From contig CAMDBB010000007.1 of the NCBI GenBank assembly GCA_945889195.1, positions 12,818 through 76,817 on the forward strand: a DNA stretch of 64,000 nucleotides. Reading direction: 5' to 3'. The stretch comes from Bifidobacterium breve (lineage in GTDB: Bacteria; Actinomycetota; Actinomycetes; Nanopelagicales; Nanopelagicaceae). The notes beneath the pieces were generated by a model. That model was given only the letters and a program-made list of their open reading frames with translations. It made no database searches and had not been told where the DNA came from. The position numbers and the translations under genes are program-made. Of the stretch, positions 24,971-64,000 are shown one piece after another. Every line of letters begins with the position of its first letter. Position 1 is the first letter of the stretch.

Positions 24971-25039
24971 TTCATCTGCTCTCTAGTAGTCGCGATTCAA
25001 TTCACTTCTAATTGGCCGCGAGTATCTAATTATTAATTT

Positions 25040-25136
25040 TTCGGGACCTCCGGTGCACCCGCCAGAGCGCACCTACCCTTGCTGTATTCCTACCCTGGGG
25101 GAGTTCAGCACGATGTCGTCGCACCGGAGATCTGCT
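25040..25136 (-). ncRNA. ffs: signal recognition particle RNA (small, 4.5S-like)
   Basis: The minus strand reads CUCCGGUGC..CCCCC-AGG-GUA-GGAA-UAC-AGCA-AGGG..GCACCGGAG. This has a 9-bp terminal helix, a GGAA tetraloop closed by GUA/UAC, and the conserved AGG/AGCA symmetric loop of SRP domain IV. It sits just upstream of dnaX, as in many Gram-positives. The ends are approximate. Confidence 0.8.
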
Positions 25137-25213: not shown

Positions 25214-25298
25214 GGAGGATTCGCATAGCGGCCGAGTGCGCACGCTTGGAAAGCGTGTATAGGGAAACCTATCGAGGGTTCAAATCCCTCATCCTCCG
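25214..25298 (+). tRNA. tRNA-Ser (anticodon GGA)
   Basis: Hand fold: acceptor GGAGGAT/ATCCTCC, D stem GCA/TGC with a GG-containing loop, anticodon stem CACGC/GCGTG with loop TTGGAAA. Long variable arm ATAGG-GAAA-CCTAT, T arm GAGGG-TTCAAAT-CCCTC, discriminator G. No encoded CCA. Confidence 0.93.
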
Positions 25299-25467
25299 CT
25301 CGTTTCACTCGCTTCAGATGATTCACAAATCAACGCTTTCACGTATTTCCCTGGAACCGCTGCCTGATATAGAAACCACAAGTACGACCATCCTCCGCCA
25401 AAAATCCTGTAACTGAGGGTAACCAGAACTACTGCGGGTAACTGGGGTTTCTAACTAAATTTACGTT

Positions 25468-25809
25468 ATGAGTGTCAGTGATGAATTTGAGTTGACTCCC
25501 GATCAAACACGTCGGGAGCATGCTGTTCTTGCCAATTTTTCACACTTGATTAAAACCGAAAGATCTCGATATGGAAATCAGGCGATTCAACTTTTAGAAA
25601 AAAAGTATTTTGAATCAGAAGTTAATGGTTTTAAGCTCATTTGTCTGGTCAAACCCAATACTTATCTGTGTCGGATTCAAAATCAGGATATCTCCGGAGA
25701 TAGTTATGAGATTGAATTTCCCATTCCAGAATCCAAAGAAGAAATGCTAGAGACTCTTGTTGAGTTATTCGCACAGAGTGAAGCAAAATGCTTGATAGGA
25801 GCACACTAG
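25468..25809 (+). CDS. hypothetical protein, 113 aa, acidic, no TM segment (cassette 1, first gene)
   Basis: ORF in the track. No motif that I recognise. Its stop lies 4 nt before the next gene's GTG. Confidence 0.55.
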   Translation: MSVSDEFELTPDQTRREHAVLANFSHLIKTERSRYGNQAIQLLEKKYFESEVNGFKLICLVKPNTYLCRIQNQDISGDSYEIEFPIPESKEEMLETLVELFAQSEAKCLIGAH

Positions 25810-25813
25810 GGAC

Positions 25814-26314
25814 GTGAGTTATTTTGAAAAGTGCTTAACATCTGATGGGCTTTTTTTCCAAAAAGAAAAAAGAGCGCTTTATAAGTACTTGCTAGAAATA
25901 AACAAGTGCTTTTATGTTAATCAGGCAAACCAGCTGCTGGACAAAGGCATCATAACTCGAATTATCGCGAATGGTGAAGCTACTTATTTTCTTAAAGATA
26001 GGAAAGTGAATTACTCCGCAAGAAAGTTAAATTCTGATGAGATTTACCTTAATCTTCGAGATGTCAAATTAAATCGTAATAGAAGATACAGCATTCGGAA
26101 ACTCGAAAAGTTCTTTGCACAATGTGATGTCGACGTAGTCTCCAACTTTCCTATCCCTGGACGATTTCCGAAAGAAGAGTCAGGATATGGCTTTAATGCA
26201 TACCCATTTTACACTCTTGCTTACTACGCCAACGGAAGGAACTACCTAAAAGGAATAGTCAAAAAACTTCGTACTAAAGACAAAGAAATGCTTACAAAAC
26301 TTCGAAATCTATAA
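25814..26314 (+). CDS. hypothetical protein, 166 aa, basic (cassette 1, second gene); paralogue of 26934..27434
   Basis: Coding status is supported by gapless paralogy, about 74/166 identical by my hand alignment, with conserved blocks EKxALYKYLLE, ANGE, LExFFAQxxVDxxSNFPxPG, NAxPFYxLxYYxNGR and LTKLRxL. Confidence 0.7.
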   Translation: MSYFEKCLTSDGLFFQKEKRALYKYLLEINKCFYVNQANQLLDKGIITRIIANGEATYFLKDRKVNYSARKLNSDEIYLNLRDVKLNRNRRYSIRKLEKFFAQCDVDVVSNFPIPGRFPKEESGYGFNAYPFYTLAYYANGRNYLKGIVKKLRTKDKEMLTKLRNL

Positions 26315-26349
26315 CACCTCTCTTGGTCACGCGTGCACGAAAGTTTCAA

Positions 26350-26372
26350 GGGTTCAAATCCATCATCTTCCG
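26350..26372 (+). repeat. degenerate direct copy of the tRNA-Ser 3' end (att-like)
   Basis: GGGTTCAAATCCATCATCTTCCG versus tRNA 25276..25298 GGGTTCAAATCCCTCATCCTCCG, 21/23 identical. Weaker similarity (CACGC..GAAAG) may extend about 20 nt further 5'. Confidence 0.7.
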
Positions 26373-26431
26373 TAAGGAACTCTGTGGATAACCCTATCCA
26401 GAAAGTGGGCGGTTGAGATTAATTTGGGTTC

Positions 26432-26929
26432 ATGTCAATATCGCTACCACTAAAACAAGTCTTTAAATTCAAGGTTCCCGGAGTGCTTGCCTTGGCTATC
26501 TTTGCTGGACAATTTTTAGTAAATGAACTTCCCAAAGTGAAGGAGCCACTTTGCAAGATTGATGTTGAGCGGCCACATACTTCGACATATTTAAAACAAC
26601 GCAAAAATCTTGAGATTCTCAAATTGAATGTCACAACGGAATGCACGGTGCCTCAGGAATTCACAATTCTCAATGCAGACATTCAAGCAATAGTCGATAA
26701 CGTTCAAATTTCGGTACAACGTTTCGACAATGAATTGCGAGTACCTGATGAGAAAGGCAGATTCAAAGCGAAATATCGGGATCTTCAGGTTGATTGTGAC
26801 TCCCTTGAGCCAACCATGTACTTTGGGCAAGCTCAGGCAGAAATACATCTCAAAAATGGTGAGGTGGAGAAGCTGTCCGGCGATTCACAATATTTCGTTA
26901 GCCAAGATTGCAAAATTGATGCAAAATAG
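26432..26929 (+). CDS. hypothetical protein, 165 aa, N-terminal hydrophobic anchor or signal, four Cys (cassette 2, first gene)
   Basis: ORF in the track with the hydrophobic stretch VPGVLALAIFAGQFLV near the N-terminus. I see no similarity to the first gene of cassette 1. Confidence 0.55.
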   Translation: MSISLPLKQVFKFKVPGVLALAIFAGQFLVNELPKVKEPLCKIDVERPHTSTYLKQRKNLEILKLNVTTECTVPQEFTILNADIQAIVDNVQISVQRFDNELRVPDEKGRFKAKYRDLQVDCDSLEPTMYFGQAQAEIHLKNGEVEKLSGDSQYFVSQDCKIDAK

Positions 26930-26933
26930 GAAA

Positions 26934-27434
26934 GTGACCTTCTACGAAGAATGTTTAACTCTCGGACGATTCCTGAGCCGTGCCGAAAAAGAGGCACTTT
27001 ACAAGTATCTTTTAGAAACTAAGCGAAATACATATAGAGCTGGGGCTAAAACCCTACTTCAAGATGATTTCCTAACAGTTTATGTTGCAAATGGTGAGAT
27101 TCAATATGGAATTGAAGATAAGCATGTTCACTATGTTGCAAGAGAAATTAACTCAGCAGAATTCTGTCCTGCTATCCGAAAGTTGAGTTTACATGTGCCA
27201 AAATTTTTGAAAGTTATTAGATTAGAGCGATTCTTTGCACAAGCTGAAGTCGATATTTTGAGTAATTTCCCCTTACCTGGAGATAATCAACAACCTGAAG
27301 GTGGTTTTGGGATAAATGCGATTCCTTTCTATGATTTAAAGTACTACTCGAATGGGCGCGGAATGTTGCGCGGGTTTTTGAAGAAATTTGAAAATTCAAA
27401 TTCAGAAATTCTTACAAAACTGAGGACTCTTTAG
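26934..27434 (+). CDS. hypothetical protein, 166 aa (cassette 2, second gene); paralogue of 25814..26314
   Basis: The track ORF starts at 26730, but the homology begins at GTG 26934 (VTFYEECLT versus VSYFEKCLT). That gives the same 166-aa length and the same TAG-N4-GTG junction as cassette 1. ATG 26919 is an alternative start. Confidence 0.7.
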   Translation: MTFYEECLTLGRFLSRAEKEALYKYLLETKRNTYRAGAKTLLQDDFLTVYVANGEIQYGIEDKHVHYVAREINSAEFCPAIRKLSLHVPKFLKVIRLERFFAQAEVDILSNFPLPGDNQQPEGGFGINAIPFYDLKYYSNGRGMLRGFLKKFENSNSEILTKLRTL

Positions 27435-27435
27435 G

Positions 27436-28854
27436 TTAAATCTCGACGCCGATGTACTTAGTCTGCAAGAACTCGTGAACACCGTCGAATCCGCCTTCGC
27501 GACCAAGGCCTGATTGCTTCACGCCACCAAAAGGCGCTGCAGGATCTGAGAGCAAGCCGCGATTGATTCCCACCATGCCTGCTTCAAGTCCTTCCGCAAA
27601 TCGAATAGCGCGCTTGAGATCTTCTGAATACACATAACTAATAAGTCCGTATTCAGTGTCGTTAGCGAGCTTGAGAGCTTCTTCATCTGTATCAAAGAGA
27701 ACAATCGGCGCAACTGGTCCAAAGACTTCATTGGCCAAGATTTCATCATCTTTAGAGACTTCAAGAACTGTTGCTGGATAGAAAGCACCAGCGCCATCTG
27801 GAGTAGTTCCACCAAGATGAACCTTTGCTCCGCGGGCCTTTGATGCATCTACTAACTCTGCAATCTTGTTACGTTCTTTCACAGAAACGCTTGCACCTAA
27901 CTGAGTTCCTGCTTCGCGGCCAACGCCCATCTTGAGAGCTGCCATAGCTTTTGCAAATTCAGCGATGAACTTGTCGCCAACAGAGCGAGCGACATAGATG
28001 CGATTTGCTGCTGTGCAGGCCGCTCCACCGTTGCGCATCTTTGCCATCATCAAGCCCTTTACCGCTTCTTCAACGTTTGCATCATCGAGAACAACAAATG
28101 GTGCATTGCCACCAAGTTCCATAGAACAACGGATAACTTGATCAGCAGCTTCTTTGAGAAGAATCTTTCCGACTTGAGTAGAGCCAGTAAAAGATAAATT
28201 CTTAACTCGTGAATCATGCAAAACTTTGCTAATTGCTGGACCTGACTGTGGTGGCAGAATGACATTGAGAACGCCTTTAGGAAGACCGCAGCGTTCGAGG
28301 ATGTCGACGATGGCGAGCGCTGTCAGTGGAGTTTCACCTGCTGGCTTCAAAATCATTGTGCAGCCAGCTGCAACTGCTGGGCCAATCTTGCGCGTTGCCA
28401 TTCCTGCAGGAAAGTTCCAGGGAGTAATGAGAAGAGATACACCGATTGGTTGATGAGTAACCAAGATGCGCTTGTCACCAGCGGGTGCCATGCGGAAGTC
28501 GCCAGAGATGCGAACTGTTTCTTCAGCAAACCAACGGAAGAATTCGGCGGCGTAATTTACTTCTGCGCGAGCATCGGGAAGCGCCTTGCCATTCTCTTTT
28601 GAGATTAGCTCTGCCAAATAATCCGCTTCAGCAATCATCATTTCAAAGGCTTTACGTAAGATTTCGCTGCGGGCTCGTGGCGCAGTCTTTGCCCAACTTG
28701 TTGCGGCGCGGTCCGCGGCATCTACGGCAGCGAGGTTCTGTTCATCACTTGAAGTGGCGACTTTGGCGATTACCGAGCCATCGCTTGGATCGATGACATC
28801 TACAGTCCCAGAACCATCTACCCACTGGCCATCGATATATAACTGAGTACGCAT
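27436..28854 (-). CDS. gabD: NAD(P)-dependent succinate-semialdehyde / aldehyde dehydrogenase
   Basis: 472 aa. ALDH superfamily (ELGGNAP, catalytic Cys in GGAACTAANR, PFGG.K.SG.GREG). Substrate assignment rests on overall similarity only. Confidence 0.75.
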   Translation of the reverse strand: MRTQLYIDGQWVDGSGTVDVIDPSDGSVIAKVATSSDEQNLAAVDAADRAATSWAKTAPRARSEILRKAFEMMIAEADYLAELISKENGKALPDARAEVNYAAEFFRWFAEETVRISGDFRMAPAGDKRILVTHQPIGVSLLITPWNFPAGMATRKIGPAVAAGCTMILKPAGETPLTALAIVDILERCGLPKGVLNVILPPQSGPAISKVLHDSRVKNLSFTGSTQVGKILLKEAADQVIRCSMELGGNAPFVVLDDANVEEAVKGLMMAKMRNGGAACTAANRIYVARSVGDKFIAEFAKAMAALKMGVGREAGTQLGASVSVKERNKIAELVDASKARGAKVHLGGTTPDGAGAFYPATVLEVSKDDEILANEVFGPVAPIVLFDTDEEALKLANDTEYGLISYVYSEDLKRAIRFAEGLEAGMVGINRGLLSDPAAPFGGVKQSGLGREGGFDGVHEFLQTKYIGVEI

Positions 28855-56889: not shown

Positions 56890-57021
56890 ATGTCGAGCTG
56901 CCACGCAACAGAACATCGGGCTCAGATTGCAGGCATCTTTGCTAATCACGGGTTAAAGGTAATTGACCTAGATGCGATCGATATGTGGGAATTTGCTAAC
57001 TACGAAGGACTTGGGGATTAA
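56890..57021 (+). pseudogene. rhodanese-like C-terminal fragment (43-codon ORF)
   Basis: The translation MSSCHATEHRAQIAGIFANHGLKVIDLDAIDMWEF.. fits the rhodanese active-site loop (C-x5-R) and following helix/strand pattern. The upstream in-frame sequence is broken by TAG codons at 56775 and 56850. Confidence 0.35.
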
Positions 57022-57046
57022 TTAAAGAATTGCTTGCAAGAATTAT

Positions 57047-58090
57047 CTAGAAAGTTGAGCAATCGATAACAAAGCGGTATCTAACATCACTTGCAACGGT
57101 TCTATCGTAAGCCTCATTGATATAATCAGCGCTGATCACCTCTACTTCGCTGACTATGTTGTTAGCCCCACAGAAATCAAGCATCTCTTGTGTTTCAGGG
57201 ATTCCACCAATCAAAGAGCCTGAAACAGAGCGCCGGCCATCCAGCAGAGATCCTGCGCCCATGCTGAAGGGCTCGCTAGGAACGCCAATCACTATTAGCG
57301 AGCCATCTGTTGCAAGTGTTGATAGATAGGGCTCTAGGTCTAAATGGGCGGATACGGTATTTAAAATGAGATCAAAACTTTTTTGGTATCCAAGATGCCA
57401 ATCAGCTTTTCCAGTGTCAATGAAATCAATTGCACCGAAAGCTCTTGCATCCTTTTCTTTAGCATCAGAGTGGGATAAAACAGTTACGTTGGCACCAAGG
57501 GCTATGGCAAATTTAACTGCCATATGTCCCAAACCGCCGAGTCCGGCAACTGCAACGTTGCTCCCTGGGCCGACCTTCCATTTCTTTAGCGGGGAGTAGG
57601 TAGTGATTCCAGCGCAGAGTAAGGGAGCCATCGCTGCCATATCAAGATTTGCCGGAAGTTTATAAGCATAACTCTCTGGAATTACGAAGTAATTTGAATA
57701 ACCACCATAGGCAATCTGCTTGGTATTTCTCTCATAGGCGTTGTAAGTGTCGGTATATCCTTCTAAACAATACTGCTGCAAACCATTTAAACAGTTCTTA
57801 CAATTTCTGCAGGAATCAATAAATACTCCTACGCCAATCCGATCGCCAGTTTTAAATTTTGATACGCCGCTTCCAACTGAAGTTACAGTGCCAACAAACT
57901 CGTGGCCCGGAACCATAGGGAAATTTGCTTCTCCCCATTCTTCTCTGGCCTGATGGATATCAGTGTGGCAGATACCAGAAAAGTCAATGCGGAATCCAAC
58001 GTCATCACTTCTGAGATCTCGTCTTTCAAAGGTGTATGGTTCTAATTTACCCTTTGCCGACATAGCTGCGAAGGCTTTAGTTGCAGTCAT
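57047..58090 (-). CDS. zinc-dependent NAD(P) alcohol dehydrogenase (CAD family)
   Basis: 347 aa with GICHTD, GHEFVG, structural-zinc Cys cluster C..C..C......C, and GLGGLGH. Confidence 0.9.
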   Translation of the reverse strand: MTATKAFAAMSAKGKLEPYTFERRDLRSDDVGFRIDFSGICHTDIHQAREEWGEANFPMVPGHEFVGTVTSVGSGVSKFKTGDRIGVGVFIDSCRNCKNCLNGLQQYCLEGYTDTYNAYERNTKQIAYGGYSNYFVIPESYAYKLPANLDMAAMAPLLCAGITTYSPLKKWKVGPGSNVAVAGLGGLGHMAVKFAIALGANVTVLSHSDAKEKDARAFGAIDFIDTGKADWHLGYQKSFDLILNTVSAHLDLEPYLSTLATDGSLIVIGVPSEPFSMGAGSLLDGRRSVSGSLIGGIPETQEMLDFCGANNIVSEVEVISADYINEAYDRTVASDVRYRFVIDCSTF

Positions 58091-58171
58091 TATTTTCCCC
58101 TCTAGTTTGATGGTTTAGTTAAATGGTTTGGCATTGCATTAAATTGTAAGTGGGTTGTAGGGAACATGCAA

Positions 58172-59377
58172 TCAAATCTTGATAAGAACTCGCCAATGTT
58201 TGCGATAAGGGAAAAGGGAAAGAACTGATATTAGAAGTGCAATTACTGGAACGATGAAAGATTTACCTGCACCATAGTTATCGATGATGTATCCCGAAAT
58301 TGGACCCGGAAGTGCGTTTCCGATCTGCAGACCTGCGAGTATCCAGGCGAAAGTTTCCGTAATCTTTGCGGGAGAAACGGATTTTTCAACGATTGCATAA
58401 CCAGAAATGAGTATTGGTGCGACACCGAGGCCGCTAAAGAAAAGCACTATGCCAAGGAGTAATATGGATTTTACGAAAAGAAGTGGAATTGTTAAGAAAA
58501 ACATCGCAATCATCAAATAGATAAATTTCTGACCATTGGTTATCTTGAGTCTAATTGCCCCATTTATGAGTGCGGCAACAGCACTACCAGCTGACCAAAT
58601 TGCTAAAAGTATTCCAGTCGAACCCTTAGCATCGAGTTGATCTGCAAACGCAATTGTGCTTAATGTTGCGGATGCGAAGAATACTCCAAGGAAAATGTAG
58701 GGTAAGAAAACCGCCTGAACATAGGGAATCGCAAGAACTGCGGTCCTCTTCTCGCTTTTAACTTTTGGATGAGGTGGTGGTTCGCTTCTCTTCTGCAAAA
58801 TGTATAGCCCGGTACCTACGCTCATAAATGAAAACGCAAAATACATTCCAGCTTGTGGTGCAATTGAAATTGCTGCAGCAGATGCTATTAAGGGACCAAT
58901 AATAAACACTATTTCATCAACAAGTGCTTCAAAGGAGTACGCAGTGTTGATGAGTTGACGACCATCTTCTTTGTCTTCCAGTGTATGCAGCCAACGTCGC
59001 CGTACCAGTCCACCGATATTGGGCAAGAATGCCTCGGCAATGAAAATGCAGCCCATCCAAATTATTATGGGGAAGTTGTGAGTGATTGTATATATAAAAA
59101 GTAGACCGAAAATTATGTATGGAGGAATTGTGAAACGTAAAACCTTAGCTTGGCCAAGCTGATCAGCTTTTCGGGACCAGACTGGGGAAAAAGCGGCGTT
59201 AGTTAACGCTGCCCCAGTCGAGATTACCCCCGCCAATGTATATGAGTCCGTTTCGTAAAGCACAATAAAAGTGACTGATAAGAAAGTCATGGAGATAGGT
59301 AAACGTGCCACTAATCCAGGAATCGAGAATGCGAGTCCGCCTGGCGTTGCAAAAAGTTCACGATACGGAGTCAGCAT
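58172..59377 (-). CDS. MFS transporter
   Basis: 401 aa with about 12 TM segments. Confidence 0.85.
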   Translation of the reverse strand: MLTPYRELFATPGGLAFSIPGLVARLPISMTFLSVTFIVLYETDSYTLAGVISTGAALTNAAFSPVWSRKADQLGQAKVLRFTIPPYIIFGLLFIYTITHNFPIIIWMGCIFIAEAFLPNIGGLVRRRWLHTLEDKEDGRQLINTAYSFEALVDEIVFIIGPLIASAAAISIAPQAGMYFAFSFMSVGTGLYILQKRSEPPPHPKVKSEKRTAVLAIPYVQAVFLPYIFLGVFFASATLSTIAFADQLDAKGSTGILLAIWSAGSAVAALINGAIRLKITNGQKFIYLMIAMFFLTIPLLFVKSILLLGIVLFFSGLGVAPILISGYAIVEKSVSPAKITETFAWILAGLQIGNALPGPISGYIIDNYGAGKSFIVPVIALLISVLSLFPYRKHWRVLIKI

Positions 59378-59498
59378 GGGGAAACTGTAATGGTATTGGA
59401 GTCATAAAAGGTTTAATTCTCTGAACAATTAGTCTAAAATCAAATATGACTGAGTTACTCCGATTTTTTGTAAACACTGATCCCGTTCAGGAAAGAGC

Positions 59499-60464
59499 AT
59501 GATGCAAAGTACTAAGCAAGACGTTAAATTGTATTTACTAGTTGACGGTGGAAAAACTAAGACCGAAGCAGTAATTGTCGATTCAAATGGATCAGAAATT
59601 GCGAAAAGTCGTGGGCCTGGTTTAGAAATAATTGGAAGCGTCGATGGCTACGAGCGTGTTGTTGATAGTTTGCGCACAACATTTGACCAACTTCCACAAA
59701 CCACACGATTTGCTGGGGTTGCATTTGGCTTAAACGGTGCTCAGGCAGCACCGTCTTATCATCTTGCCGCTAAAGCAATCTCATCATTGGTAAAAGCTGA
59801 TCAATTTACGATTGCCAGTGATGTCGTAATGAATTATCTAGGCGCACTTGGAAATCAACCTGGCGTAGTCGTTGCGGCAGGAACTGGCGCTGTGGTGATG
59901 GCAATTTCAAGAGAAGGCGTTGCGTATCGAATTGATGGCGATGGCCCACTAATTGCAGATCGTGGAAGCGGACACGACATTGGTCGACAAGGGTTAAAGA
60001 TCGCAGCAATGGTTGATGATGGGCTACCCGGGTCAGCTGCACTTCATAAAGCGATGATTGAACGTTTCGGCACGCTGGAAAACACTGCAGCTAGCGTTTA
60101 TGGAGCACCAAACCCCATCGAGGTAGTTGCCTCTTTCAGTAAGAGTGTTGTAGATGCCGCACAAGAGGGCGATGAAATGTCTATCGAGATTCTGCGCTGT
60201 GCCGCTCAAGATCTAGCCATGAATGTGCAAGCTGCCGCTCGACGTTCCAAGCTGGCAGGAGCGCCATTTTCCTATTCTACGGCCGGCGGAGTCTTTAACA
60301 TCGGGCCACTTATAGAAAAACCGTTCCACGATTTTGTAGCTCAATTTCTTCCCGAGGCCAAGTTTCAAAAACCTATAGGTGGGGCTATTGCAGGTGCCCA
60401 AATCATGGCTATGAATCAAGCGCCAGGGTTAGAGCAGGTAACCACTCGAATTGGCGCAAACTAG
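59499..60464 (+). CDS. BadF/BadG/BcrA/BcrD-type ATPase (N-acetylglucosamine-kinase-like)
   Basis: 321 aa with LLVDGGKTKT N-terminal phosphate motif and GTGA. ASKHA fold. Confidence 0.8.
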   Translation: MMQSTKQDVKLYLLVDGGKTKTEAVIVDSNGSEIAKSRGPGLEIIGSVDGYERVVDSLRTTFDQLPQTTRFAGVAFGLNGAQAAPSYHLAAKAISSLVKADQFTIASDVVMNYLGALGNQPGVVVAAGTGAVVMAISREGVAYRIDGDGPLIADRGSGHDIGRQGLKIAAMVDDGLPGSAALHKAMIERFGTLENTAASVYGAPNPIEVVASFSKSVVDAAQEGDEMSIEILRCAAQDLAMNVQAAARRSKLAGAPFSYSTAGGVFNIGPLIEKPFHDFVAQFLPEAKFQKPIGGAIAGAQIMAMNQAPGLEQVTTRIGAN

Positions 60465-60467
60465 TTA

Positions 60468-60495
60468 GGTATACCAGTTTCATATATGGTCTAGA
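60468..60495 (+). promoter_or_regulatory. candidate GntR/HutC (DasR/NagR-like) operator pair upstream of the sugar ABC operon
   Basis: The sequence is GGTATACCAGT-N8-TGGTCTAGA. It contains the perfect palindrome GGTATACC, and TGGTCTAGA equals the first 9 nt of the TGGTCTAGACCA dre core as I recall it. Confidence 0.3.
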
Positions 60496-60606
60496 AAAAC
60501 GTTAGTGCTTTGTAACTATAAATGATTGACTTTAGTGAAGCCCAATGGAAGATTTCATTTTGCAAAAGTTTTGGAAGTTCCGACAAACTACTGTGATTGG
60601 GTGAAA

Positions 60607-61887
60607 ATGAAAATTAGAAGTAAAAGTTTAGTTTTTGCACTGAGTGTTTCTTTACTTGTTCCTGCATCACTGATTACAACATCAGCTATGGCAGCAACAA
60701 CAACTCTAACAATTGATTCATGGCGTACGGATGATGCGAAGATTTGGAAAGATGTTTTGATTCCAATTTACGAAAAAGCTAATCCAAACGTAAAACTTGT
60801 ATTCGCACCAACCCCTTCAAACGAATATGACTCTGCGCTTTCTTTGCGGATGAAGAGCAAGACTGCGGCCGATGTAGTTATGTGCCGTCCATATGGTTTG
60901 ACTAAGGCTCTCATAAAGGACAAGCATTTAACTCCTATAACTGGCTTACCTGGGCTACAAAATTTCACAAAGCAATCGCAGCAATCTTGGGCAGACGCTA
61001 AGGGTGTTCCATATTGCATGCCAGTAGCCTCAGTAGGTGCAGGCTTCTACTACAATAAAAATATCTTTAAGGAATTGAATTTAACTGTTCCTAAGACGCA
61101 GAAAGAATTTATTGCAGTACTTAAGAAGATCAAGAAAAATGGAAAGTACACACCGCTTGTGGCGACTGGTTTATCAGCAGATTCTTGGGCACTGGATCAA
61201 TTGGGTCTTCAATTAGTGGGACCTTATTACTGGAAAGGTGATGCCGGTGGAGTTGCTCTTGACAACGGCACAAGAAAAGTTACTGATCCAGAGTACGTTG
61301 CTGCATTTGAAGCACTAGCTTCATGGAAGCCATATCTCCCTAAAGCATTCTCATCTGTTTCCTACTCAGATGCTGAGCAGCTATTCATTCTTGGTCGTGC
61401 TGCAGTTGCAGTTGACGGCTCATGGAGTGTAAAAGAAATGGCCCCACCAGGATCAAATGTTGGCGTGTTTGGTGCTCCAGTAGCTAAAGCCGGTGACAAG
61501 CCATATGTTCAGGTTCTTGCCGACTTCGGCTTTGGAATCAACTCTGCAAGCCCACATCAAGTCGAAGCTAAAAAACTTCTAACTTGGTTTTCAACTAAGG
61601 AGTTTGGACAGGCACTTGCCAATAACTTACCTGGATTCTTCCCATTGAGTAAGGAGAAGATTTCAATTGACAACAAAACAGCACAGGCCTGGCTTAACTT
61701 GCGTGATGGAGCGATCGTTACAGCTCCAATCGGCATGGATAAGATGAATACCGGTACACCTAACTGGTTCTCAGTCACAACTAATCTTTTGAATGTGATG
61801 ATGACTACGAAGATGACCGGAAAACAGGCAGCGGCTGAACTACAAAAGTCGTTGGAATCCTGGTATCCACCACAGAAAAAGAAGTAA
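60607..61887 (+). CDS. ABC transporter sugar-binding protein (family 1 SBP)
   Basis: I start it at ATG 60607 (MKIRSKSLVFALSVSLLVPASLITTSAMA signal peptide). The remainder is typical of carbohydrate SBPs. Confidence 0.88.
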   Translation: MKIRSKSLVFALSVSLLVPASLITTSAMAATTTLTIDSWRTDDAKIWKDVLIPIYEKANPNVKLVFAPTPSNEYDSALSLRMKSKTAADVVMCRPYGLTKALIKDKHLTPITGLPGLQNFTKQSQQSWADAKGVPYCMPVASVGAGFYYNKNIFKELNLTVPKTQKEFIAVLKKIKKNGKYTPLVATGLSADSWALDQLGLQLVGPYYWKGDAGGVALDNGTRKVTDPEYVAAFEALASWKPYLPKAFSSVSYSDAEQLFILGRAAVAVDGSWSVKEMAPPGSNVGVFGAPVAKAGDKPYVQVLADFGFGINSASPHQVEAKKLLTWFSTKEFGQALANNLPGFFPLSKEKISIDNKTAQAWLNLRDGAIVTAPIGMDKMNTGTPNWFSVTTNLLNVMMTTKMTGKQAAAELQKSLESWYPPQKKK

Positions 61888-61895
61888 GTGATGTC

Positions 61896-61940
61896 GGTGC
61901 TCAGACCCATAGTGGGTCTGAGCACCTTCACCTTTCGATT
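61896..61940 (+). terminator. strong hairpin (13-bp perfect stem) plus T-rich tail after the SBP gene
   Basis: GGTGCTCAGACCC-ATAGT-GGGTCTGAGCACC followed by TTCACCTTTCGATTT. It is probably a partial terminator or mRNA stabiliser between the SBP and permease genes. Confidence 0.65.
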
Positions 61941-61966
61941 TATTGCTAATTTAACTGGGGGAGTAC

Positions 61967-62848
61967 TTGAAATCTAAAACATTAGTGCGTAGGCGCCGCC
62001 GGCAACTGTTGCTGTTTACTGCCCCGGCCCTTGCCTTTTTTCTGCTTTTTGCAGTTTTTCCATTACTCTCAACGATCTACATCAGTTTCTACCAAGAAGA
62101 TGTATTTGTTGGTCTAAAAAACTTTGTTTTCCTGTTTACGGATGATGAAGCAAGCGAAAGACTCCTTTTCGCATTTCTGCATAACTGTCAATTTTTCTTG
62201 ATTGCCGCATCGGTACAACTTCCAACGGCTCTATTAATGGCAGCCCTCTTGACCTCGGGTCGAGTTAGGCGAATGACCAGTTTTTATCGCACATTGCTAT
62301 TTATCCCAACGACCCTGTCTGTTGTAATTGTTGGTTTCATTTGGCGAATAATCATTAGCCCACTGTGGGGGATAGTTGACTATCCATTGTTGGGTGAAAA
62401 ACTTACTGCACTTCCGACAATCACCCTGATGTCGGTCTGGCAATATCTTGGAATCCCGATGGTTTTTCTATACAGCGCGCTACTTTCAATTCCAAGCAAT
62501 ATCATCGAAGCTGCTCAAGTGGATGGTGCATCAGATATCAGAATTTTCTTTCGAATTAAAATGCCACTAATTGCTCCACAAATTGGGATTATTACAATTT
62601 TAACTTTTATCTGGGTCTTTAATGCTTTTGACATCATTTATGCCTTAAATGGTGGAATGCCTGGTCCGGACTATGCAACTGATGTCCTGGGCACAATGTT
62701 CTACCGGACTTTCTTTGGCTGGGGTGCTGACCTAGGAAACCAGAATCTAGGCGCTGCAACAGCGACTGTTATATTCTTCATTATTCTGTTGGGCACAGCA
62801 GCATATTTTGCGGTTGTGCAACGCCGTTTGAAAGTGAGTCAGTTATGA
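61967..62848 (+). CDS. carbohydrate ABC transporter permease (MalF-like)
   Basis: 293 aa with 6 TM segments and the EAA-type loop (IEAAQVDGAS). TTG start with GGGGGAG SD. Confidence 0.9.
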   Translation: MKSKTLVRRRRRQLLLFTAPALAFFLLFAVFPLLSTIYISFYQEDVFVGLKNFVFLFTDDEASERLLFAFLHNCQFFLIAASVQLPTALLMAALLTSGRVRRMTSFYRTLLFIPTTLSVVIVGFIWRIIISPLWGIVDYPLLGEKLTALPTITLMSVWQYLGIPMVFLYSALLSIPSNIIEAAQVDGASDIRIFFRIKMPLIAPQIGIITILTFIWVFNAFDIIYALNGGMPGPDYATDVLGTMFYRTFFGWGADLGNQNLGAATATVIFFIILLGTAAYFAVVQRRLKVSQL

Positions 62849-63690
62849 TGAACAAAGATGGCAGAGTTCAAACTCAATCAAAAAATCTCGTAGTCCATGT
62901 ATCTTTGCTATTTTTTGTGTTACTTGCAATTGGTCCAATATTTGTAATGGTCATAAATTCATTTAAAACTATGGAAGGTATTTTTACTGGACCACTAAAG
63001 CTTCCGAGTTCTGAGACCTTGACCTTAGATGGATTTAAACGTGCGATCACACAAGGAAACTTTCTTAGAAATTATGCAAATAGCACTATTGTCACCTTAG
63101 GAGCTACGTTATTAACGGTTATTTGCTCCTGCTTGGCCGCTTATGGAATAACTGAATACACCACAAAACTTTCAAAAATGATTGCTGGTCTATTTACCAT
63201 AGGCATCATGTTGCCAGTTTCGCTAGGAACTATTGTAATTATTAAGATGATGGTATGGCTTAATATTTTAAATACTCATATATCACTCATTCTTGTTTAT
63301 GTAGGAATCTTTGTACCGCTAGGTGTAATTTTAATGGTTACCAATTTTCGAACAGTTTCTAATGATCTAAAGGAAGCAGCACGCATTGATGGCGCAAATG
63401 AGTTCAAGACCTTCCTGATAGTTGTTCCACTGGTTATGCCAGGTGTTGCTGCGGTGGCTGCGATCACAATGCTGCCTGTTTGGAATGACTTATGGTTCCC
63501 ACTAGTCCTCACTGCGGGACCAAAAACTCAGACATTAACGTTGGGCATCCAGCAATTTGTTGGTACTTACAACAATGATTGGCAGGCGCTGATTGCCTCC
63601 TTAGTGCTTGGCGCAATTCCGCTGATTCTGTTATTTACTCTTTTCTCAAAGCAATTTATAAAAGGTCTTTCAGATGGGTACGGCAAGTAA
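62845..63690 (+). CDS. carbohydrate ABC transporter permease (MalG-like)
   Basis: 281 aa with the EAA loop (EAARIDGANEF). 4-nt overlap with the upstream permease. Confidence 0.9.
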   Translation: MMNKDGRVQTQSKNLVVHVSLLFFVLLAIGPIFVMVINSFKTMEGIFTGPLKLPSSETLTLDGFKRAITQGNFLRNYANSTIVTLGATLLTVICSCLAAYGITEYTTKLSKMIAGLFTIGIMLPVSLGTIVIIKMMVWLNILNTHISLILVYVGIFVPLGVILMVTNFRTVSNDLKEAARIDGANEFKTFLIVVPLVMPGVAAVAAITMLPVWNDLWFPLVLTAGPKTQTLTLGIQQFVGTYNNDWQALIASLVLGAIPLILLFTLFSKQFIKGLSDGYGK

Positions 63691-63725
63691 GGATTTCGGG
63701 TTACCAATCTAATAAGGGAGTACAC

Positions 63726-64000
63726 ATGAAGGTCGATAGAGTTGAAGATATTGATTCAGTTTTGATAGCTGAATTAATTGCCCATCTTGGATTAGATGCC
63801 GTGAATCGACAAGTCCCCGAGATTAAAATGGCAGCGAAGCTGATTTTTGATGCCGTTAACGGTGGCGGAAATGTTTTTACTTTTGGCGCCGGCCATGCAC
63901 AAGCTCTGGCAATGGAGTTTTCAAGTCGAGCGGGTGGTTTGGCTATATTTCAATCAATGCATCTACAGGATATCCGCCAAGAGCCCCGAGATGCATTCTG
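63726..64000 (+). CDS. SIS-domain (UPF0309-type sugar isomerase-like) protein, N-terminal part; cut by window edge
   Basis: My translation from ATG 63726 (AAGGGAG SD) is MKVDRVEDIDS..AAKLIFDAVNGGGNVFTFGAGHAQALAMEFSSRAGGLA. Confidence 0.7.
   Translation, partial: MKVDRVEDIDSVLIAELIAHLGLDAVNRQVPEIKMAAKLIFDAVNGGGNVFTFGAGHAQALAMEFSSRAGGLAIFQSMHLQDIRQEPRDAF

Follow-up and report, generated by a model that had tools for sequence, protein, structure and literature searches.

The window analyzed here, a 64,000-nucleotide (nt) stretch of contig CAMDBB010000007.1 (assembly GCA_945889195.1) that GTDB places in the Nanopelagicaceae, carries two copies of a gene for a 166-amino acid (aa) protein, named f166 in this study, between a serine transfer RNA (tRNA) gene and an aldehyde dehydrogenase gene. 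Four open reading frames (ORFs) on the forward strand fill this gap. In order, these are p113 (25468..25809) and f166 copy A (25814..26314), referred to as cassette 1, followed by p165 (26432..26929) and f166 copy B (26934..27434), referred to as cassette 2. The two cassettes are separated by a tRNA relic (26328..26372, forward strand). The variable site is anchored on the left by tRNA-Ser(GGA) (25214..25299, forward strand), which was identified by ARAGORN and Rfam, and on the right by the convergent NAD-dependent aldehyde dehydrogenase gene, aldDH (27436..28854, reverse strand), which was assigned from the Pfam domain Aldedh in related loci and from synteny. Comparison with about 90 related loci (18 genome loci, seven found by looking up identical proteins, and 65 metagenome contigs, designated by L numbers below) identified p165 and f166 as a sharply bounded two-gene replacement cassette of 1.05 kb that normally occurs once per genome. 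The window represents an uncommon double state of this site, with a full B-type cassette at the resident position and an upstream A-type f166 accompanied by p113, and the same arrangement recurs in the metagenome contigs L019-L021 and L032.

Both f166 copies were listed as forward-strand ORFs of exactly 166 codons plus a stop codon, each beginning with GTG, in agreement with a first-pass annotation of the window that had noticed the pair. BLASTP aligned the two proteins without a gap at 74 identities (45%) and 106 positives over 166 residues (E = 3e-51), the same number of identities that had been counted by hand, and the motifs named in that annotation were found in place (E-x-C-L-T, ALYKYLLE, ANGE, Y-x-AR, FFAQxxVD..SNFPxPG, G-x-G-x-NA-x-PFY, and LTKLRxL). 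Both proteins are basic, as it had stated, with isoelectric points (pI) of 9.7 for A and 8.8 for B against a family median of 9.2. Copy A has a 99% identical relative, P0001. Copy B abuts the stop codon of aldDH at its 3' end; at its 5' end, an alternative start at ATG 26919 would yield a protein of 171 aa and an 11-nt overlap with the stop codon of p165, and homologues are often called with an overlapping start of this kind. Copies A and B are genuine genes, as indicated by ratios of nonsynonymous to synonymous substitution rates (dN/dS) of 0.10-0.27 within types, by hundreds of homologues, and by a confident structure model. At an identity of only 45%, any duplication that produced them was old rather than recent, as had been proposed. 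The accompanying proposal of separately derived cassettes also proved to be the best reading, because B-like copies next to aldDH are joined to quite different upstream types in other arrays (L028 and L070), which argues for separate acquisition and not for a single ancient duplication. Such B-like copies adjoin aldDH in L024, in L026-L031, and in the context of P0107. An unannotated 190-aa ORF lies directly upstream of B-like cassettes in L026 (3019-3591), L028 (3301-3873), L070 (2782-3354), and the context of P0107; it is a possible third component of the B-like type and is absent from the window.

In other genomes, the upstream neighbor of f166 is a homologue of p165 and not of p113. The first-pass annotation had envisaged freely variable partner genes, and this view was not borne out, as the canonical partner belongs to one conserved family in nearly all loci. 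This family, p165 (165 aa in the window), comprises 299 clusters. The start of f166 overlaps or abuts the stop codon of p165, and the two genes were therefore considered to form an operon. In p165, a short and conserved N-terminal tail precedes a single transmembrane helix, and residues 40-165 were modeled by AlphaFold as an all-β sandwich ectodomain at a predicted local distance difference test score (pLDDT) above 90. Four cysteines (C41, C71, C122, and C160) were invariant in family alignments. According to these models, p165 crosses the membrane once and exposes a predicted disulfide-bonded β-sandwich ectodomain. Searches with 37 members of the family, each against Pfam at E ≤ 10, returned no recurrent family, and Foldseek returned only generic matches to immunoglobulin (Ig)-like, LEA-2, ApaG, and TRAP-β folds, with template-modeling (TM) scores of 0.33-0.46 and a best E value of 4.8e-4. 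In its N-terminal transmembrane anchor followed by a β-sandwich of ~125 residues, p165 resembles the luminal domain of TMEM106B (8b7d), LEA-2 (1yyc), ApaG (1xvs), and TRAP-β. It differs from these proteins in that the TM-scores reach just 0.33-0.46, that no match to Pfam LEA_2 or another Pfam family was found, and that the four invariant cysteines are particular to the p165 family and not shared with the Ig-like and LEA-2 look-alikes.

The place of p165 in cassette 1 is taken by p113, an acidic protein of 113 aa (pI 4.9) that had been regarded as an unrelated partner of copy A. The p113 and f166 families were aligned by hhalign over 116 columns with a probability of 97% (E = 1.1e-10), and p113 covers the first ~107 residues of f166, through the FAQxE motif. 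As judged from this alignment, p113 is a truncated member of the same superfamily, an f166 paralogue reduced to the N-domain, so that the window would hold three members of one superfamily. The p113 family is small and was found in the window, L044, L048, L059, and L079, and in the latter four loci its members adjoin aldDH. A possible Rosetta-stone protein joining f166 to p113, P0147, was not relied upon, as its C-terminal half is only weakly p113-like (E = 0.007, probability 6%).

A single gene order, dnaX, (signal recognition particle (SRP) RNA), tRNA-Ser(GGA), p165, f166, aldDH in convergent orientation, and kup, was shared by the ~90 loci. The tRNA-Ser(GGA) gene was upstream of the module in essentially all loci that reach that far. 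In the window, the bacterial small SRP RNA (25039-25135, reverse strand) lies between dnaX and tRNA-Ser(GGA) and belongs to the conserved left flank. Of the ~40 loci that span the interval from the tRNA to aldDH, ~30 contained a single copy each of p165 and f166, and the interval measured ~1.1-2.6 kb in single-pair loci and 1.03-1.10 kb in the most compact ones. The G+C content of the four cassette genes is 36-41%, as compared to 48-51% in dnaX, aldDH, and kup. Hence, the description of the site as tRNA-proximal, low in G+C, and variable in content was sustained. The idea of roaming islands was not, because the ~90 loci all occupy the same syntenic place within a single bacterial order, lack an integrase, and include no viral contigs. 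The first-pass annotation had also named, as a possible result against its reading, that the homologues might be core genes without linkage to variable partners; this held for their position, which is core-like, and failed for the content, which is hypervariable. In the window, the interval from the tRNA to aldDH contained no ORF for a tyrosine or serine recombinase, and inspection of the ORFs carried by the additive segments in 17 related loci revealed neither an integrase nor a transposase.

Some loci contain additional cargo at the same site, including a SulP transporter with a small PGPGW membrane protein, Doc/Fic-like proteins, hydrolases, and secreted proteins, while the cargo in strain IMCC19121 is a two-component system. 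A recurrent insert between f166 and aldDH encodes an 85-aa protein with two transmembrane segments and a SulP-like permease of ~415 aa (L055, 1221-2744; L059, 1985-3489; L064, 3752-5278; L078, 1255-2760). In addition, 124-aa ORFs with a Doc/Fic-type motif (H-x-x-x-DGNKR), recognized by eye only, were present in the additive segments of L045 (4369-4743) and L052 (3642-4016).

The replacement behavior of the cassette was evident from pairs of loci with closely related flanks. Among pairs in which aldDH is at least 97% identical (with a median identity of 94% for kup), the median identity was 50% for f166 (range 35-100) and 43% for p165. For example, L083 and L085 have aldDH genes of 100% identity and f166 proteins of 50% identity. 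Similarly, L039 and L050 share 98% identity in aldDH, 94% in kup, and 95% in dnaX, as compared to 46% in f166 and 34% in p165. At the nucleotide level, the latter two loci are 93-100% identical up to the 3' end of the tRNA and 36-59% identical over the cassette; along the last ~50 nt of f166 (encoding ..EILTKLRTL) and on into aldDH, they are again 89-94% identical. The divergence of f166 was correlated with that of p165 (Spearman 0.72), while the correlation of cassette divergence with aldDH divergence was low (rho of 0.05-0.22). Single-linkage clustering at 60% identity divided 95 f166 sequences into 22 types. In some pairs the contrast was reversed: the synonymous divergence (dS) of f166 was 0.047 between L036 and L038 and 0.23 between L003 and L008, as compared to an aldDH dS of 0.69 and 1.0, respectively. 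The cassette dS, far below the flank dS in such pairs, indicates that alleles have been transferred between lineages. Thus, two marks of a replacement island were found, namely conserved flanks with a sharp drop in identity between close relatives (in L039/L050 and in the pairs with aldDH at least 97% identical) and alleles that are independent of the genomic background (in the low rho values and the dS contrasts).

Within types, dN/dS was 0.10-0.27 for f166, 0.05-0.29 for p165, and 0.01-0.06 for aldDH, which indicates that both cassette genes are functional, yet less constrained than aldDH. On the right side, the recombination boundary observed between L039 and L050 lies within the ~50 nt that encode the conserved C-terminus of f166, which correspond to 27385-27434 in the window. 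The conservation of ..EILTKLRTL may derive partly from a role as homology anchor rather than from protein function.

The sequence between the two cassettes of the window had been noticed as a 27-nt repeat of a tRNA 3' end after copy A and interpreted as an attachment-site (att) duplication. The repeat extends to about 45 nt and represents a 5'-truncated 3' half of a tRNA-Ser gene. At either end, about 28 nt are common to both tRNA-Ser genes. The short variable arm of the repeat is of the CGA type, not GGA, for which reason an att duplication of tRNA-Ser(GGA) was dropped. The relic is ~87% identical to the intact tRNA-Ser(CGA) genes of L013, L024, and L059, with its 5' half gone; it was not called by ARAGORN or Rfam, and Rfam at a permissive threshold gave noise only. 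From these comparisons, the relic is taken to be a decayed and non-functional resident tRNA-Ser(CGA) gene instead of an att duplication. In a search for attL/attR repeats around the cassettes, this 45-nt tRNA 3' half after cassette 1, derived from a separate tRNA-Ser(CGA) gene, was found, and no repeat bounds cassette 2. If the genome has no other copy of tRNA-Ser(CGA), the lineage would have lost this tRNA, and UCG would be read by wobble.

Other loci showed related arrangements. In L024 and L042, intact tRNA-Ser(GGA) and tRNA-Ser(CGA) genes stand in tandem and are followed by the cassette. In L059, the order is tRNA-Ser(GGA), f166, tRNA-Ser(CGA), p165, and f166, with a visible scar of a tRNA fragment. 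Pseudogenes of f166 lie between tRNA-Ser(GGA) and an intact tRNA-Ser(CGA) in L013 (5986-6498) and L018 (5884-6352), one with an in-frame stop codon and the other with a frameshift, and the L013 interval also holds a DUF952-like ORF and a distant p165-like ORF. The largest array, in L044 (2142-6233), includes three f166 genes and two full tRNA-Ser(GGA) genes in the order tRNA-Ser(GGA), p165, f166, second tRNA-Ser(GGA), f166, p165 fragment, f166, p113-like ORF, and aldDH. The arrays in L028, L044, L059, and L070 led to the rejection of an alternative in which the A and B clades are ancient slot-specific paralogues, the former between the tRNA genes and the latter beside aldDH. The window is best explained by a resident B-type cassette and an A-type unit (p113 and f166) that was placed between the two tRNA-Ser genes, with tRNA-Ser(CGA) decaying later.

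A conserved element, TGTGGATAACCCTATC, is located upstream of p165 (26383..26398, forward strand). Its core, TG[GT]GGATAACC, begins at position -49 relative to the ATG of p165 (26383-26393 in the window), and the exact core occurred once per locus at this fixed offset in 29 loci, whether the cassette directly follows the tRNA or not. Within the 64-kb window, the core was found in a single copy at up to one mismatch. The element is a near-palindrome, reading GGGATAWCCC in some types and the variants GGGATATCCC or GGGATTCCC in others, and may serve as an operator or as part of an upstream promoter region. Column frequencies were derived from 53 distinct upstream regions of p165, of which 43 contain a -10-like hexamer, TAnnnT, at exactly -12..-7 of the ATG, with neighboring offsets almost empty. 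In the window, this hexamer is TAATTT (26420..26425, forward strand), and the hexamer TAAATT (25456..25461, forward strand) stands at the same offset from the ATG of p113. Both the element and the hexamer are retained across very divergent cassette types (L001-L090). In actinobacterial promoters, a -10 hexamer at such an offset is the signature of a leaderless transcript that begins at the ATG. Each cassette is thereby predicted to carry a leaderless-type promoter and an operator-like site of its own. A scan of the island for sigma-70 promoters and terminators gave results at shuffle level only.

Database searches agreed with the earlier impression that the f166 family is unrecognised. None of the four island proteins gave a family match in profile searches of Pfam, NCBIfam, PHROGs, or PADLOC; PADLOC gave nothing at E ≤ 1, and PHROGs gave noise alone, at E values of at least 0.12. 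Searches with 20 diverse f166 members, each against Pfam at E ≤ 10, revealed no recurrent family, and the profile search of PDB sequences with f166 returned one chance match to a discoidin domain (E = 1.2). A profile built from A and B retrieved 651 clusters at 90% identity from a metagenomic collection of 5.8 billion proteins, all of them unnamed or labeled 'hypothetical'. An exhaustive HMMER search of 1.84 billion representatives yielded only 49 clusters at the 50% identity level and did not reveal any distant relative with a name; P0169, the sole long match (E = 1e-4), is a repeat protein and was judged to be spurious. The 18 loci from species-representative genomes were all from acI Actinobacteria, and they comprised metagenome-assembled genomes of 'Candidatus Planktophila' and of unclassified Actinomycetota as well as the complete genome of strain IMCC19121. 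A scan of IMG/VR viral contigs found no relatives.

Copy A was modeled by AlphaFold2 from a 23-sequence alignment with a pLDDT of 88.9 and a predicted TM-score (pTM) of 0.86. The model begins with a short helix, followed by a helical hairpin (residues 16-29 and 31-44), a four-stranded antiparallel meander (46-85), a long helix (90-111) that carries the FAQxEVD motif, a conserved loop (NFPxPG, GYGxN, and PFY), and three short C-terminal helices. Residues Y23, L41, A52, N53, R70, R82, F101, A102, Q103, N111, and P113 are invariant or at least 90% conserved in the family. Neither PDB nor BFVD contained a significant Foldseek match: the best E value was 0.25 in PDB (TM ≤ 0.26) and 0.02 in BFVD (TM ≤ 0.39), where the top matches were uncharacterised jumbo-phage proteins. 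HMMER, AlphaFold, and Foldseek together gave no confident match to a well-characterized family. The f166 family is specific to acI Actinobacteria, with a predicted alpha/beta fold that has no significant match in the libraries searched. The f166 protein is basic and cytoplasmic and has no signal peptide.

The loose resemblance of the N-terminal third to a winged helix, suggested in the first-pass annotation, was not supported by the model, in which the hairpin, meander, and long helix described above stand in place of a three-helix bundle with a β-hairpin wing. No helix-turn-helix or winged helix-turn-helix protein was present among the 50 Foldseek PDB matches listed, and no helix-turn-helix family in Pfam or NCBIfam was matched by A or B at E ≤ 1 or by the 20 diverse members at E ≤ 10. 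A PD-(D/E)xK nuclease was likewise rejected on the basis of the topology (a four-stranded meander and then a helix), the lack of an acidic ExK motif, and the lack of such matches in Foldseek. The top weak Foldseek matches included the PUR/Whirly-like ββββα domains of MRP1/MRP2 (2gje/2gia), PURA (8chv), and p32 (1p32), which, like the f166 core, place a long helix after a meander of four antiparallel strands. These matches are not significant (E of 0.25-1.1, TM ≤ 0.26), and unlike these domains f166 has an additional N-terminal helical hairpin and a 55-residue C-terminal extension (NFPxPG..GYGxN..PFY..YYxNG..LTKLR). This conserved extension has no counterpart in the weakly similar ββββα proteins. 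The basic character of the family and its weak matches to ββββα nucleic-acid binders may serve as a lead, and they are not regarded as a result.

The explanation considered probable is that p165 and f166 form a hypervariable replacement cassette of acI, which would act as a strain-specific surface module with a cognate intracellular partner. Exchange of the cassette would proceed by homologous recombination at conserved anchors and not by site-specific integration, with dnaX and the tRNA-Ser genes as the left anchors and the conserved f166 C-terminus and aldDH as the right anchors. The exposed ectodomain of p165 would be what other organisms, most plausibly phages, recognize in a strain-specific manner, and frequency-dependent selection would keep p165 polymorphic. 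The protein f166 would be the cognate intracellular partner that touches the tail or transmembrane segment of p165. It might also bind nucleic acid, perhaps at the near-palindromic element upstream of the leaderless-type promoter, and would thereby couple p165 and f166. A surface recognition or exclusion module fits the observations best because the cassette combines a fixed place with hypervariability, an exposed ectodomain with predicted disulfide bonds, and a co-varying basic partner with invariant polar residues, and because it has its own conserved, predicted promoter and near-palindrome, occurs occasionally as orphan or stacked copies, and resides in a phage-pressed host without CRISPR systems or prophages. 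A more elaborate version is put forward tentatively and regarded as rather doubtful as a whole. It would cast p165-f166 as a strain-specificity system in which a serotype-like surface receptor or exclusion protein is coupled via its short cytoplasmic tail to a cognate intracellular nucleic-acid binder of new fold that acts on the operator-like element, in which phage-driven frequency-dependent selection holds more than 20 interchangeable types, and in which orphan f166 and p113 modulate or broaden specificity.

Several observations weigh against this interpretation. The whole-gene dN/dS below 0.3 in both genes points to purifying selection within types and not to pervasive positive selection. 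The loci were retrieved through f166 itself, and the counts given above cover f166-bearing loci only. The pair is not obligatory, as orphan f166 copies occur in the window, L052, L053, L045, and L059, and orphan p165-like ORFs occur in L064, L072, and L076. No homology to any characterized protein was found, and the similarity of f166 to ββββα nucleic-acid binders is insignificant, as given above for Foldseek (E of 0.25-1.1, TM ≤ 0.26). We infer the function, and also the contact between p165 and f166, the latter from co-divergence alone, which linkage within a swapped block would also yield. As for the upstream element, it may belong to the promoter or serve as a binding site for a host factor.

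Two other functional explanations were considered. The cassette might be dedicated to anti-phage defense or exclusion, with f166 as a cytoplasmic sensor, p165 either as the effector in the membrane or, in the manner of Sie proteins, as a block to DNA injection, and the diversity as the outcome of an arms race with phage proteins. Lactococcal Sie proteins are small and consist of an N-terminal anchor and an external domain, an architecture similar to that predicted for p165. A pair of one membrane and one cytoplasmic protein at a hypervariable, low-G+C, tRNA-adjacent locus that is at times stacked in arrays would suit this role, as would the absence of CRISPR systems and prophages from acI genomes, which face heavy phage pressure (PMC12817590). 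Nevertheless, a defense system was judged unlikely: neither PADLOC nor PHROGs returned a match, viral contigs hold no relatives, p165 consists of one transmembrane helix and a β-sandwich without a pore, nuclease, or nucleoside triphosphatase domain, and the locus is near-universal and fixed in position, whereas known defense genes mostly vary by presence and absence. Co-variation of the pair across many deep types, the fast turnover of alleles, and the existence of orphan f166 copies and arrays would also agree with an interbacterial effector-immunity pair, in which p165 is an exported effector, f166 confers immunity, and the additional A-type f166 is an acquired orphan immunity gene. However, p165 apparently remains anchored in the membrane and has no recognizable toxin domain, f166 lacks a signal peptide and therefore resides in a different compartment from the p165 ectodomain, and no secretion system is linked to the locus. 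Orphan p165-like ORFs occur as well, and the invariant polar residues of f166 (N53, R70, R82, Q103, and N111) fit a conserved biochemical activity better than mere immunity binding, which leaves an effector-immunity pair improbable.

Two further alternatives were considered. The constant presence of the family beside tRNA-Ser genes, the tRNA 3' half between the cassettes, the L044 cassette between two full tRNA-Ser(GGA) genes, the scar of a tRNA 5' fragment in L059, and the lack of a conventional integrase could all suggest tandem miniature mobile elements that target tRNA genes, with f166 as a novel small site-specific recombinase. Such elements are very unlikely, since the ~90 loci occupy one site in one order and none was found at other tRNA genes, in other taxa, or in viral contigs. 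Moreover, the relic is assigned to a decayed resident tRNA-Ser(CGA), which stands in tandem with tRNA-Ser(GGA) in L024 and L042, the right boundary lies within the f166 C-terminus beside aldDH without a repeat, and f166 has no recombinase motif or fold match. Least likely of all, and hardly credible, is an ordinary fast-evolving lineage-specific pair that arose by ancient tandem duplication and has since undergone only differential loss and vertical divergence. The fixed syntenic position, the purifying selection, and the coexistence of A and B in the window would be expected from such a history. It is disfavored by cassettes of 35-50% identity between flanks of at least 97% identity, by cassette and flank divergences that are uncorrelated, by a cassette dS far below the flank dS in some pairs, by the sharp identity cliffs at the boundaries, and by arrays elsewhere that mix types without slot-specific clades.

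Outside the cassette site, a second low-G+C stretch was observed at 57000-64000 of the window, with 41-44% G+C as compared to about 49% elsewhere. It includes genes for a zinc alcohol dehydrogenase, a major facilitator superfamily transporter, a BadF/BadG-type kinase-like ATPase, and a sugar ATP-binding cassette (ABC) transporter, and is possibly another flexible region.

The acI lineage, or Nanopelagicales, comprises the most abundant lake bacteria, which have tiny genomes and many co-existing strains. The cassette provides a compact 1-kb marker with which strain-level diversity could be followed by typing of metagenomes, and a candidate determinant of phage interaction or self-recognition, for which Planktophila cultures and phages now exist. 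In addition, it contributes two protein families whose folds were predicted with confidence and had no significant match in PDB or, in the case of f166, in BFVD.

Staphylococcal agr groups and Bacillus comQXP pherotypes are polymorphic specificity loci in which co-varying gene pairs lie between conserved flanks. As in these loci, the deep allelic types of the cassette diverge together between near-identical flanks, and alleles are common to several lineages. Unlike agr and comQXP, the cassette encodes no histidine kinase or peptide precursor has no sequence or fold relation to either system, and is not known to act in signaling, and the analogy is evolutionary only. A closer comparison is with the genomes of Planktophila, for which PMC12817590 describes tRNA-flanked additive islands and replacement islands under a constant-diversity model, and reports that the surveyed genomes of isolates contained neither CRISPR systems nor complete prophages. 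No description of the cassette locus was found in the literature, including the available text of that study. Like the flexible islands described there, the cassette site is low in G+C, adjacent to a tRNA gene, and free of integrases; its content is swapped among close relatives via recombination in conserved flanks, and cargo is sometimes added (SulP, Doc/Fic, and hydrolases). In contrast to the islands of ten or more genes catalogued in PMC12817590, the cassette is about 1 kb in length and contains two genes, and unlike those islands it forms an allelic series of one homologous gene pair with its own conserved promoter and operator-like element, both predicted. The cassette is typical in kind of flexible genomic islands; what sets it apart is that two genes form an allelic series whose site stays fixed throughout an entire order.

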